Shown here piece after piece: positions 39,141 to 42,231 of a stretch of 64,000 nt of DNA; position 1 is the first letter of the stretch, and the number at the start of each line of letters is the position of its first letter. Source of the DNA: Coraliomargarita sp. (lineage in GTDB: Bacteria; Verrucomicrobiota; Verrucomicrobiia; Opitutales; Coraliomargaritaceae); the NCBI GenBank assembly GCA_965216325.1, contig OZ244160.1, positions 2,304,001-2,368,000 of the forward strand. Reading direction: 5' to 3'. The notes under the pieces are model-generated. The model had not been told where the DNA came from and did not search any database. It saw only the letters and a program-made list of their open reading frames with translations. Made by a program: the position numbers and the translations under genes.

Positions 39141-40298
39141 TTACTTGAGCACTTGCGCAGTGCGTGCGGTCAAATTCGGTGCGCCTTGCTTGAGCGCGGT
39201 TGCCAGATCCGTTCCATCGGGCGTAATACTGGTGACCTTACAATTTGGAAAACGTTCCTGCACCGAGTCGGCGGCGTCTACTTCTGCTTTGCCCGCAAGC
39301 ACAATGGTGCGTGTGTTGGTCTTACCCGCCGCGGTGACGAGTGCAAAGGGGCCCTTCCCGGCGAGTGAGCTGCTGTCGAACTTACCTTCGCCAGTGAGAA
39401 TGAGTTCTGCGGCGGACACCTTGTTGTTCAGGTCGAGCCAAGACTCCACCAAGTCGAAGCCGGCGAGGAATTCTGCACCGCAGGCAACTTTGAGACCAAA
39501 GCCAATGCCTCCCGCTGCGCCCGCGCCGGGTGCGTCTTTGAGTTCAATGCTTTGGCCAAAGTGTTGGCAGAGCAAATCCGCTAGGCGATTGGCTTCCGCA
39601 TCAAAGCTTTCAAGCTCATCGGGCTGCAGGCCTTTCTGCGGTCCGTAGACGGCAGCTGCGCCGCGTTCGCCGAGTAGCGGATTATCAACGTCGCAGGCGA
39701 TATAGATGGGCGGGAGTTTAAAATCGAAGAATCCGGTAATTGACTCCACCTGTGACCATTTTTCAGGGACGATCGCATCGTCTGTGGTTGGGAATTGGAT
39801 GCCGAGTGCTTGCAGGGCGCCGAGTCCGAGATCGCTGGTGGCGCTGCCGCCGATGCCGAGGAGGATGGCTCCGGCGCCTTGGGCGGTCGCGATGCGGATC
39901 AGCTCGCCGACGCCGCGTGTGGTGCAGTGCTTTGGGTGGCGTTGTTCGTTGGGCACTTGCTCGAGTCCTGCCGCTGAGGCCATCTCAATGATGGCCAGTT
40001 TGCCGAGCGCGGTGCCGAACTTGCGGCGCAGTGATTCACTGAGAGTGTTGAGTTCGACCCATCCGAGGGGTGCTTCGACATCCTGACCCAGTGGTCCGCA
40101 GACGGTATGGTGCTCGATGTAGCCATTGGCGGCGTTGGTCAGAATCGGGCAGAAGCCTTCACCTCCATCGGTGAGCGGCGCTTCGGTGATCTGAACAGAG
40201 TCGCCCAGTGTTTGGCGGACCCCGACAGCCGCAGCTGAGCAAGCCTCGGCAGCAGTCATGGAGTCTTTAAATTTATCAAATGCGAGCAGGACGTTCAT
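39141..40298 (-). CDS. Glycerate kinase
   Basis: [38 protein letters not shown] and TGEG motifs. Confidence 0.95.
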
Positions 40299-40307
40299 TT
40301 AAAGGCA

Positions 40308-40353
40308 TGAACATGAACATCGAACTTCGAACGTCCAACACTGAACGTCGAAT
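40308..40353. repeat. Heptamer-periodic array (TCGAACR family)
   Basis: gaacatc-gaacttc-gaacgtc-caacact-gaacgtc. Confidence 0.8.
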
Positions 40354-40380
40354 GAAGTGGATTTTAGTCTGCTTTTCGGT

Positions 40381-40412
40381 GTGGTGCGCCTCGAGACGCG
40401 GCTGCGCTACCT
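40381..40412 (-). repeat. GTAG-type REP (GTAGCGCAGCC family)
   Basis: 31/32 identical to the reverse complement of 48128-48159. Confidence 0.88.
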
Positions 40413-40476
40413 TGAACTAAACCGTAGATGACATGGGCGTTTATCAGGAGCACGGAAGTGCTATGATGATAAACTT

Positions 40477-41565
40477 ATGCAAAACCCCACATCATCTACA
40501 CGGACAACTAAGAACGCACTGGGCACAGTAATCAAGCTTGGCATTGACGTGCATGCGAGCACCTACGTGGTGGTCATGAAGATCGATAGCAGCGCCCCTT
40601 CACGCGCGAAGCGCATGAAGCCTGATATCTTCCTTCGATGGATTAAGCAGCTGAGCACTCAGTGCGAGCAGTTGCAAAGTTGCTACGAGGCCGGTCCTTT
40701 TGGTTACAGCCTGCACCGCAAGCTCAAGGCGATGGGCGTGAACAACCACGTAATCCGCCCGATCAACTGGGACACTCATGGTAAGAAGGTAAAGACCGAC
40801 GCGCGTGATGCGTTGCAAATGGTCTTGAGTCTGGACGGCTATCTGCGGGGCAATGACCGCAGCTTCAGTGTCGTGCGTGTGCCCAGCGAGCAAGAAGAGC
40901 GTCACCGCAGCCTAACCCGGCAGCGTGAAAGCTTCGTCAAAGAACGTGGCCGTGCGGCCAAGCGTGGTAAGAGTCTGGGACTGTATTACGATCAACCCTT
41001 ACCCAGCGGCTGGTGGAAGCCGCGCAAATGGATGCAGCTACTCGAACAGCTCGACGATTTTTTGATCAGCCTGCTGGAGCCACTGCGGTTAAACTGCCTG
41101 CACTTTAGCGAGCTAATCAGCAACATCGAAGAACGTATCGAAGCGCTCGAGCCGGAACGGGTGCTGCCTAAAGGCATGGGGGTGGTCCTCTATGAACAGA
41201 TCGAACGTGAGGTCTGCAACTGGAAGCGATTCAACAACCGCAAGGCGGTCAGTTCCTTTACCGGACTGTGCCCAAGCGAAGACACTAGTGCAAATCGGCG
41301 TTTCCAGGGCTCGATCAACAAACACGGCAGTCCCCGCCTGCGGCATATGCTACAAGAGTGCGCCTGGTTATTGATCCGGTGGAATCCCGGCTACAGTGGG
41401 GTGCGTAAATGGCAGGCCAAGCTCAGCGACGAGACCACCAGTAAGGCGACCCGCAAGAAAATTGCCGTGGCCATCGCCCGGCAGTTCGCCGTGGACTGGT
41501 GGCGCATACGCACTGGCCAATGCAGTCTCGAAGACTTCGGACTGATAAGCAGACAAAACCCATAA
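40477..41565 (+). CDS. IS110-family DEDD transposase/recombinase
   Basis: LGIDVH, YEAGPFG and KTDARDA (DEDD RuvC-like domain); GLCPSEDTS...GSINKHG serine domain. Confidence 0.95.
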   Translation: MQNPTSSTRTTKNALGTVIKLGIDVHASTYVVVMKIDSSAPSRAKRMKPDIFLRWIKQLSTQCEQLQSCYEAGPFGYSLHRKLKAMGVNNHVIRPINWDTHGKKVKTDARDALQMVLSLDGYLRGNDRSFSVVRVPSEQEERHRSLTRQRESFVKERGRAAKRGKSLGLYYDQPLPSGWWKPRKWMQLLEQLDDFLISLLEPLRLNCLHFSELISNIEERIEALEPERVLPKGMGVVLYEQIEREVCNWKRFNNRKAVSSFTGLCPSEDTSANRRFQGSINKHGSPRLRHMLQECAWLLIRWNPGYSGVRKWQAKLSDETTSKATRKKIAVAIARQFAVDWWRIRTGQCSLEDFGLISRQNP

Positions 41566-41627
41566 GTCCGAACCAACGCTAAAGGCCTTCACCCTCTGAT
41601 TTTAACGTTCTTTTGCAGTTTTCCTTT

Positions 41628-41784
41628 GTGCGGAGTGAGTCTGACCAAGCCCCTGTTGCCAACACAACGATTTTGTAGAATAGGCCACTTCGCCACCAAG
41701 CTTTTGAATGACCCAATGGATAGGTCATAGTGTGCTCTTCTGAGAAACACTCAGAAACACGGATAGCAGGTTATCCCGGATCAT
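41628..41784 (+). ncRNA. Putative bridge RNA/seekRNA (target-binding and donor-binding loops)
   Basis: Two stem/internal-loop/stem hairpins (41628-41696 and 41708-41784) whose loops match the target and donor junction sequences; folded by eye, transcript ends unknown. Confidence 0.75.
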
Positions 41785-41901
41785 CGAAACTCCGAGGCCA
41801 TGCGCGGTGGACGCTCAAAGACGATTGCAATCAAAACAAACCACTTATCTTATGTAAAAACACTCACACGCTTCTACACTCTTGACAGAAACGAACATAG
41901 C

Positions 41902-41991
41902 AGGGGCTTTGCTTGCGAAGCCCGCCGCGTCAGAGTGATCTTCTGAGACGCCGTTCTTTCCTGACTGAGGGCGTCGCATACAACGCCTCGA
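41902..41991. repeat. Remainder of the interrupted REP plus its inverted partner
   Basis: aggggctttgcttgcgaagccc ... gggcgtcgcatacaacgcctc; same family as 18087-18168. Confidence 0.8.
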
Positions 41992-42015
41992 CACTAGCTT
42001 TAAGGCCGTTCATTG

Positions 42016-42155
42016 AGTTCTCCTCCTTGTTTAAGGAGGAGTGCCCTGAGCTTGTCGAAGGGGGAGGTGGTTTGTTCCTGCGTTGGAAGTCTTCTCGGAG
42101 AGCAATCACCCCGACCGGGCAAGCCGGTCACCCCTCCTTGAAAAAGAGGGGAGCT
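42016..42155. repeat. Inverted pair of CTCCTCC..GAGGAG hairpin elements
   Basis: Arms resemble the second half of the 14747/52813 repeat. Confidence 0.7.
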
Positions 42156-42231
42156 GTTGAGTGGCGCTTGCGATACAGTGCGTAGTGGGGGCTGTGCTGG
42201 GTCAGAGTTGTTCTTCGCGCGCGCTGTGCAC

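Follow-up and report, generated by a model that had tools for sequence, protein, structure and literature searches.

A probable guide RNA downstream from the gene for the transposase in an IS1111-type insertion sequence of Coraliomargarita sp.

The window analyzed here, a 64,000-nucleotide stretch of the Coraliomargarita sp. genome (GenBank assembly GCA_965216325.1, contig OZ244160.1, positions 2,304,001 to 2,368,000), harbors an insertion sequence of the IS110/IS1111 type. The stretch 41624-41820 of its non-coding tail very probably encodes, on the + strand, the guide RNA of this element, i.e. a bridge RNA or long seekRNA of about 160-200 nt in an IS110-family element with IS1111 layout. This assignment is based on sequence comparison: three putative guides, for the right target, the left target and the left donor, are backed by covariation with their DNA partners, and a fourth, the right donor guide GUCAU, is plausible. 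The element is a new example of a type of RNA-guided recombinase known since 2024, and the branch it belongs to is widespread and undescribed. A first-pass annotation, made from the letters of the window alone, had placed an RNA with four guide segments at 41628-41784, and every string that it named is where it was said to be: AAGCCCCT at 41647-54, GTAG at 41675-78, GTCAT at 41724-28, ATAGCAG at 41763-69 and again as right end plus core at 41897-903, AGGGGCTT at 41902-09 and the left end ATGAC at 40428-32. The putative guides are the following.

41647-41654, + strand: right target guide AAGCCCCU, the complement of AGGGGCTT (41902-09) on the top strand
41673-41678, + strand: left target guide UUGUAG, in the same sense as left flank plus core (GTAG plus two U)
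41724-41728, + strand: right donor guide GUCAU, the reverse complement of the left end ATGAC; weakest guide of the set
41763-41769, + strand: left donor guide AUAGCAG, the same sequence as right end plus core (41897-41903)

Relatives of the element were collected in two scans. The scan of one genome per species yielded 20 loci, mainly from Opitutales and other Verrucomicrobiota, with protein identities of up to 72%, and the metagenome scan returned at least 601 candidate stretches, at least 510 of them confirmed as relatives, of which the best 80 (42-73% identity) were kept. A plain alignment of the tails already makes a conserved two-arm RNA visible. A covariance model built from 12 tails finds this RNA in 80 of 94 sources, always on the gene strand and always downstream of the matched gene, except in locus L077, which has a second, truncated copy upstream; among the 14 unmatched sources, 11 are cut within or just past the gene. 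In the window, the model has a single match (41623-41792, 134.7 bits). A search of Rfam 15 with positions 40200-42200, at E-values of up to 1, gave no match.

The ends of the related elements were located by motifs conserved among them, TTGAC...CATAGCAG for the right end with up to two changes and ATGACATGGGG for the left end with up to three; the target loop is used in neither pattern. A right end followed by at least 10 nt of flank was available for 63 of the 80 RNA matches (17 were dropped), and these contain 29 distinct right target guides. Compared with their own flanks, the guides fit at a mean of 6.79 of 8 non-core positions, against 3.90 after permutation (maximum 4.86; 0 of 5000 permutations as high), and at 7.10 against 4.67 if wobble pairs are allowed; a register shift of one base was permitted equally in the real and permuted sets. 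In the tail alignment, loop 1 changes together with the right flank, AAGCCCCT occurring with AGGGGCTT, TGACCCCT with AGGGGTCA, TGACTCCT with AGGAGTCA and CGACACCGCT with AGCGGTGTCG, and further guides in relatives include CCACGCGGCCU with AGGCCGCGTG and GAGCGACCCCU with AGGGGTCGCTC. The left flank was assessed in 44 loci with a credible left end and 19 distinct left target guides. Here, 2.53 of 5 non-core positions fit, compared to 1.41 after permutation (again 0 of 5000), a weaker covariation in a shorter guide. The loop bases hence covary with both target flanks. The left target guide, which had been proposed as GTAG, reads better as UUGUAG with G-U wobble: among the nine copies of the element in its own genome, position -5 is T in three and C in six, where a U-G wobble is possible, and position -6 is T in six of nine.

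On the donor side, 63 of 64 loci have a left donor guide identical to the final 7 nt of their right end, L025 being the sole mismatch. The variant AUAGGAG of this guide is found with the right end ATAGGAG in 4/4 loci, such that the same C-to-G change appears in both places. The right donor guide fits at 5/5 positions in the element of the window; among relatives, left end and guide combine as ATAAC/GAUAU (4/5), ATAAC/GAUAC (3/5) and ATGAC/AUCAC (3/5). A discontiguous right-donor pairing is also described for IS621 by Durrant et al. (2024; PMC11208160). The covariation that the first-pass annotation had proposed to look for in homologous elements is therefore present for three of its four guides, and GUCAU is borne out in part. 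In the linker between the arms, AUGACC (41708-41713) copies the left end in this sub-group of relatives only. As the same annotation had cautioned, AUGACC pairs with the right donor guide in the minimum-energy fold; by eye, it could alternatively pair with GGAUCAU at 41778-84.

In 2000 dinucleotide-preserving shuffles of this tail, an 8-mer match to the right flank occurs in 3.0% and a 7-mer match to the right end in 5.6%, and all four guide matches together occur in none. The arrangement of the target guides is also conserved: the match to the top strand (41647-54) lies 5' of that to the bottom strand (41673-78), in the same order in all aligned relatives, and the right target guide is longer (8-11 nt) than the left one (4-6 nt).

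A second member of the family resides in the same genome. Searched genome-wide, a refined model of the RNA, described below, matches ten places, namely nine copies of the element and one different element, present in a single copy at G000:C1 ~2769470-2771004 (L121 371-1905) with a transposase open frame of 389 codons. Its loop reads GCUCCCCUCCU and its insertion site TCAAG followed by GAGGGGAG, a match of 10 nt on the right side. A terminator-like hairpin, CCCCTCCT-cgtca-AGGAGGGG, with TTTT after it, serves as the target. In this one cell, two elements naturally combine different guides with different targets.

The extent and fold of the RNA were derived from the extended region of 26 diverse relatives, which was aligned with MAFFT and then folded with RNAalifold. 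In the resulting structure, the 5' end pairs with a segment about 190 nt downstream (helix P1) and the linker after hairpin 1 pairs with the bases just before that segment (helix P2). In this unfitted alignment, P1 and P2 together have 88.6% of cells paired and 15 of 17 pairs changed on both sides, and 0 of 500 shuffles score as high; in P2, all nine pairs are changed on both sides, with 89.7% of cells paired in the unfitted and 93.4% in the model-fitted alignment. The outermost local stem of hairpin 1 has 83.3% of cells paired and 2 of 6 pairs changed on both sides, and 56 of 500 shuffles are as high by paired cells and 162 of 500 by covariation score. By these counts, P1 and P2 are better supported by covariation than the outermost part of hairpin 1, and the outermost pairs that had first been drawn for this hairpin do no better than shuffles. 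A second model with the refined structure and 80 matches gives 95.2% paired cells, a figure biased toward the model because the alignment is fitted to it, and 28 of 33 pairs changed on both sides (0 of 500 shuffles); including the long-range helices, it matches the window at 41623-41837 with 129.5 bits. Folded by minimum energy, 41620-41826 likewise shows P1 and P2. A length of about 197 nt with paired ends, rather than 157 nt, is therefore likely, and the RNA would run some 36 nt past the boundary at 41784 that was originally assigned to it. Its predicted parts are listed below.

41624-41820, + strand: proposed full guide RNA, ~197 nt, from RNAalifold on 26 relatives, pair counts and minimum-energy fold; putative ends
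41624-28 and 41631-32 with 41812-13 and 41816-20, + strand: helix P1, closing the RNA ends
41693-41701 (41693-97 and 41700-01), + strand: 5' strand of helix P2, CCACC..GC, pairing with GC..GGUGG at 41802-41810 (41802-03 and 41806-10)
41632-41691, + strand: target-binding arm, with lower stems GGAGUG.GUCUG and UAGGC.CACUUC and an internal loop between lower and upper stems
41655-58 with 41665-68, + strand: upper stem of the target arm, GUUG with CAAC
41731-41761, + strand: inner hairpin of the donor arm, UGUG (41731-34) with CACG (41758-61), in the register of the relatives
41738-44 with 41750-56, + strand: apical stem of the donor arm, UUCUGAG with CUCAGAA
41777-41794, + strand: small third hairpin, CGGA with UCCG; by eye GGUC/GACC, CAGGU/ACCUG or CGGCCUC/GAGUCCG in relatives

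The inner stems of both original hairpins stand. Helices 2 and 3 of the target arm have 95.4% and 97.2% of cells paired, and the inner hairpin of the donor arm 99%, all with many compensatory changes; in the latter, two pairs switch between U-A/C-G and A-U/G-C. The non-coding end of the element thus holds a conserved structured RNA. Furthermore, G-U pairs are kept at fixed positions of the stems (e.g. G-U in 75/79 and U-G in 72/75), which points to an RNA of the + strand and does not fit its complement or a DNA fold. Folded alone, the pieces 41625-41700 (76 nt) and 41700-41790 (91 nt) form the two hairpins, with 4/200 and 7/200 shuffles as stable. The fold of the whole tail (41566-41910), over roughly the range that the first-pass annotation had proposed to fold, lacks the hairpins and is no more stable than shuffles (z +0.83). 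With the donor arm and the third, small hairpin both inside P2, a multi-loop may effectively be the setting of the donor guides; in IS1111 bridge RNAs, Durrant et al. report donor-binding bases, many of them in a multi-loop (PMC11208160).

The 3' segment at 41802-41820, which is predicted to pair with both the 5' end and the linker after the target arm, contains a sequence (GGUGGACG in this element, mostly GGAGACG in relatives) that nearly repeats the 5' strand by which the target arm can alternatively be closed on a local scale, and over a few bases the long-range and local pairings of the target arm are mutually exclusive. A bolder idea, which we rate as rather improbable, is that the RNA of this branch is a closed three-way fold of ~200 nt instead of two independent hairpins, and that the two exclusive pairings act as a switch. 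A closed long form would then couple the target and donor arms, and an open form would release a short, target-only RNA. If true, this would explain in structural terms why seekRNAs occur as long and short species, two forms whose relation is so far unexplained.

The insertion sequence to which the RNA belongs has the following features.

40428-41903, + strand: insertion sequence of IS110/IS1111 type, 1476 bp including the AG core at the right end (41902-41903)
40424-40427, + strand: left target flank GTAG (core AG at 40426-27); GTAG in 8/9 copies, GAAG in 1/9
41904-41923, + strand: right target flank; GGGCTT (41904-09) is the 5' arm of the repeated palindrome GGGCTT-tgcttgcg-AAGCCC
40428-40432, + strand: left terminal extension ATGAC (right donor half-site); left ends of relatives keep ATGAC or ATAAC
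40433-40448, + strand: left subterminal inverted repeat, imperfect, with its partner at 41881-41898, as read by eye
40477-41565, + strand: transposase gene, 362 aa, the sole long open reading frame, matching Pfam Transposase_20 and DEDD_Tnp_IS110

The genome (3.06 Mb in one contig) contains nine full-length copies of 1476 bp each, from ATGAC... to ...CATAGCAG, with exact left and right end anchors in 9/9; eight are ~100% identical over some 1500 bp, and a base-by-base comparison of one copy found a single different base. Consistent with this, the contig depth of the element is ~9.4x that of its flanks. The deviating copy (G000:C1:2070223-2071721) carries a C-to-A change at the position equivalent to 41758 of the window, by which a G-C pair in the inner stem of the donor arm is lost and the model score decreases from 129.5 to 121.6 bits.

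GGGCTT stands directly right of the element in 9/9 copies, and in 8/9 the insertion lies between GTAG and GGGCTT, at the foot of the repeated palindrome. Uninterrupted GTAGGGGCTT sites occur 34 times in the genome, compared to 8.5 expected from base composition; by hand count, ~22 of them are the 5' foot of the palindrome hairpin, and another 8 are part of a second repeat that shares its head. Because AG stands at both junctions of the copies, with AG at 40426-40427 being the same core on the target side, we take it to be the shared core, as had been suggested in the first-pass annotation; nine junction pairs and the 34 empty sites, which read GTAG directly followed by GGGCTT, support this. 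The element hence inserts site-specifically, with a core dinucleotide common to ends and target and without target duplication. It looks recently active and aimed at a repeated palindrome, and an element with a guide RNA explains nine identical insertions at such a palindrome in its host genome. Several other family members target repeated palindromes as well (PMC11208160, PMC12288879). Counted by eye, the repeats in 41904-41925 of the window and at the 34 empty sites fall into two families with a common head, GTAGGGGCTTYGCTYGC: a short palindrome with the end AAGCCC, and a longer repeat that continues ...gccttcgaccatgagctca; 3/9 copies are inserted in the longer kind. A further 33-nt repeat just left of the insertion site (40381-40413), with at least eight other copies in the genome at 93-97% identity, belongs to a family distinct from the target palindrome.

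Within the element, 49 nt before the start codon and 338 nt after the stop codon are non-coding. This longer region downstream of the gene is typical of the IS1111 group, to which the element had been assigned at the outset. Relatives have ATGGGG-N6-GTCA(G/A)G at both ends, and ~12/18 aligned positions match here; when exact matches were scanned for, no terminal repeat reached 6 nt in the register of the subterminal repeat of this element. The terminal extensions measure 5 nt at the left end and, at the right end, 3 nt plus core.

The domain and residue matches support an intact DEDD transposase of the IS110 family, in line with the initial proposal of an intact recombinase. The protein combines an N-terminal DEDD/RuvC-like domain (PF01548 DEDD_Tnp_IS110, E 9.4e-07, 29.2 bits, cut-off 29) with a C-terminal Transposase_20 domain (PF02371, E 4.9e-14, 52.9 bits, cut-off 21.3). 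It scores 137.8 bits over residues 21-344 against NCBIfam NF033542, 'IS110 family RNA-guided transposase', and as this is just below the cut-off of 140, we consider it to represent a divergent branch. D24, E71, D108, D111 and S271 are invariant among six relatives and align, in weak profile alignments, to the GID, EA and KTDxxDA motifs and the ESG serine of IS621 and ISCro4, whose catalytic roles are described by Hiraizumi et al. (2024; PMC11208158). The profile matches to the solved IS621 and ISCro4 have E-values of 0.07 and 3e-4, and a single-sequence search of solved structures found none at E-values of up to 0.01. Two protein searches of a plasmid collection gave identities of at most 32% and no names useful for placing the protein with IS1111 or IS110. 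The position of the GL-P----S(t)G motif reads GLCPSEDTSA here and ends in SD, SN or SG in relatives.

By analogy with the published family, the element would be excised as a circle with its ends joined at AG. In the joined ends, TTGACA would stand 17 nt before TGACAT, which could create a junction promoter driving the gene and the RNA behind it:

41882-41887, + strand: TTGACA, an outward-facing hexamer resembling a -35, conserved in the tail alignment and located 16 nt before the right end
40429-40434, + strand: TGACAT, putative -10 of a promoter at the circle junction; in the joined ends, it would follow TTGACA with a counted spacing of 17 nt

TTGACA is required by the right-end search pattern, so the located ends of relatives provide no independent support for this hexamer; relatives with the left end ATAACAT would yield TAACAT as -10. 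The RNA would then fold, perhaps be trimmed, and bind the recombinase. In the target arm, UUGUAG on the 3' strand of the internal loop would pair with the bottom strand left of the cut, and the arm as a whole would pair with both target strands around AG, the two target guides overlapping on this core. The donor arm would likewise pair with the joined element ends. RNA and DEDD/serine recombinase would thereby bring the joined circle ends to the site between GTAG and GGGCTT, and the strands would be exchanged at AG by the DEDD and serine sites. Protein binding, circle intermediate, transcription from the junction promoter, processing and chemistry are all proposed here from what is published for the family. 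A scan for sigma-70-type promoters in 40300-42100 found no site, and no T-run terminator was called in the tail. The DNA contigs of four runs from one study, which probably supplied the assembly, show the nine-fold depth alone; in these contigs, from which rare forms are dropped, there is neither a circle junction nor an empty site at the locus.

Among the known systems, the layout matches that of the IS1111 group, whose seekRNAs have been described for ISEc11, ISPa11, ISKpn4 and ISPst6 (Siddiquee et al., 2024; PMC11187229) and are likewise located in a non-coding region downstream from the gene that codes for the transposase. In the text of that paper, the match to the top strand also lies 5' of that to the bottom strand, in one internal loop and with an overlap at the insertion point, so that the strand order agrees with the IS1111-type assignment. 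The size of the RNA is within the range of the 'long' form (145-172 nt), and the target arm of ~70 nt is comparable to the short form. As in ISPa11, the target is a repeated palindrome, and as in the group generally, putative subterminal inverted repeats are combined with short terminal extensions; the repeats of the group measure 7-17 bp and that of our element is imperfect, unlike those of the seekRNA elements. Other differences concern the protein, which is distant (at most 32% identity to plasmid-borne relatives and just under the NCBIfam cut-off), longer (362 aa versus 330-350), and has GL-P----SA where IS1111 proteins have S(t)G or occasionally TA. The two long-range helices that close the RNA may also set it apart from the seekRNAs as presented in the published text. 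Right-end bridge RNAs have been predicted in 93% of IS1111 elements (PMC11208160).

The RNA also shares central properties with the bridge RNA of IS621 and the IS110 group (Durrant et al., 2024, PMC11208160; Hiraizumi et al., 2024, PMC11208158), which has two binding regions, four guides and a 2-nt core. In both, the left guides read like the top strand and the right guides are its complement, the right donor guide pairs imperfectly ('discontiguous' in IS621), the target is a repeated palindrome, and a -35 at the right end points to a junction promoter. By contrast, the RNA is encoded at the opposite end, the guides follow each other in reverse order within each loop, AG takes the place of CT as the core, the right donor guide does not cover the core, and the protein match to IS621 and ISCro4 is weak. 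ISPpu9 and ISPpu10 of Pseudomonas putida (Pares-Guillen et al., 2025; PMC12288879) resemble our element in that they occur in several copies per genome, inserted in repeated extragenic palindromes at an invariant AG, and AG cores are therefore already known in the family. ISPpu9 belongs to the IS110 group, and its bridge RNA is encoded upstream of the gene with a strong promoter of its own, unlike the downstream RNA described here, for which no own promoter was found in the scan of 40300-42100.

The system is thus uncharacterized, as the first-pass annotation had thought possible, only in the sense of being a distant, unnamed branch; the kind of system is known, and no new kind of biology is opened by it. 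What it adds to the RNA-guided recombinases described in 2024 is a natural example with many relatives. These form a natural reprogramming series, with 29 distinct right target guides each next to its own flank and two family members in one genome aiming at different hairpins. The closed long-range fold is a refinement worth keeping, and an RNA with paired ends could help to define the functional RNA of IS1111-type systems, which are less studied than IS621; among the publications listed from 2025 on that combine seekRNA with cryo-EM, none reports an IS1111-type structure by its title.

Several observations weigh against the interpretation of the tail as a four-guide RNA. Two of the guides, of 4-5 nt, are at chance level in this one sequence, as had been feared from the beginning: the longest exact match in the real tail, of 5 nt and outside the RNA, is equalled or exceeded in length in 75% and 86% of the 2000 shuffles. 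The case must therefore rest on the copies and relatives. Among the latter, three right target guides are misfits with 2-4 of 8 positions (L035 and L119 with 2/8 each, and L079 with a misfitting flank), L038, L039 and L081 have no RNA match despite at least 400 nt after the gene, and since the end patterns tolerate mismatches, the ends of some may be misplaced. The right donor guide fits at only 3-4 of 5 positions in most relatives, and the AG at 41729-30, opposite the core, is not complementary to it, here or in most members. The basal stem of the donor arm, GGAUAG/UUAUCC, does not hold up as the general outer stem of hairpin 2 that it was first taken for: it pairs in 47.8% of cells across relatives, or in 75.4% with little covariation when shifted by one register, and is specific to a sub-group. 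Moreover, the folding energies of the whole tail and longer pieces are unremarkable (z +0.83, -1.55 and -0.87), and the -10 of the junction promoter, TGACAT, is weak and not called by a consensus scan. A look-up of sequencing runs that contain the element listed none of RNA.

The points on the donor side would suit an element whose RNA, similar to a short seekRNA, seeks the target only, its protein reading the ends via the subterminal repeats and AUAGCAG and GUCAU being copies of the DNA ends or chance matches. There is precedent for this in ISEc11, where a short RNA of 70-100 nt with the target matches alone sufficed (Siddiquee et al., 2024; PMC11187229), and GUCAU by itself is at chance level, weakly kept across relatives and attached to a poorly supported basal stem. 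Nevertheless, we consider a target-only RNA unlikely: AUAGCAG tracks the right end nearly without exception, its C-to-G variant does so in at least three separate branches, the donor arm and the enclosing P2 are conserved with compensatory changes, and donor-binding bases are described in IS1111 bridge RNAs (PMC11208160). Sequence alone cannot separate the pairing of an RNA from that of a DNA with the target, such that the guide could in principle be a single-stranded DNA fold of the element end, as in IS200/IS605. We regard this as very improbable, given that the G-U (in DNA, G-T) pairs of the stems, fixed in nearly all relatives, fit only an RNA of the + strand, and that the protein is a DEDD/serine recombinase of an RNA-using family (PMC11187229, PMC11208160) and not an HUH enzyme. 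Finally, the unremarkable folding energies, the chance level of the short matches in one sequence and the lack of an Rfam match would all be compatible with an ordinary structured 3' untranslated region or terminator with coincidental loop matches. This explanation is already disfavoured and scarcely credible to us: the loop bases change with DNA outside the element in 29 distinct guides, the second element of the genome has the same relation between loop and flank, and the tail contains no called T-run terminator. A guide RNA that pairs with both target and donor is thus the reading that we prefer.

Some loci among the relatives have unusual junctions. In L080, a metagenome contig of 1613 bp, the right end is joined directly to the left end, CCCCATAG being immediately followed by ATAACAT, and the CAG expected before the left end is missing; possible explanations are a circle junction, a tandem junction or a wrap-around in the assembly. 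At the right junction of L044, 13 nt of the right end (GGTCCCATAGCAG) recur in the flank ahead of a normal target, and those of L096 and L079 have an extra CAG past ...CATAGCAG; these three may be footprints or slipped junctions. Lastly, a Synoicihabitans metagenome-assembled genome contains seven copies (L022-L024, L029, L030, L034 and L036), of which L022 alone has an intact gene. The other six have 1-7 in-frame stops, which could reflect decay or sequencing frameshifts, and the RNA region is nearly unchanged.

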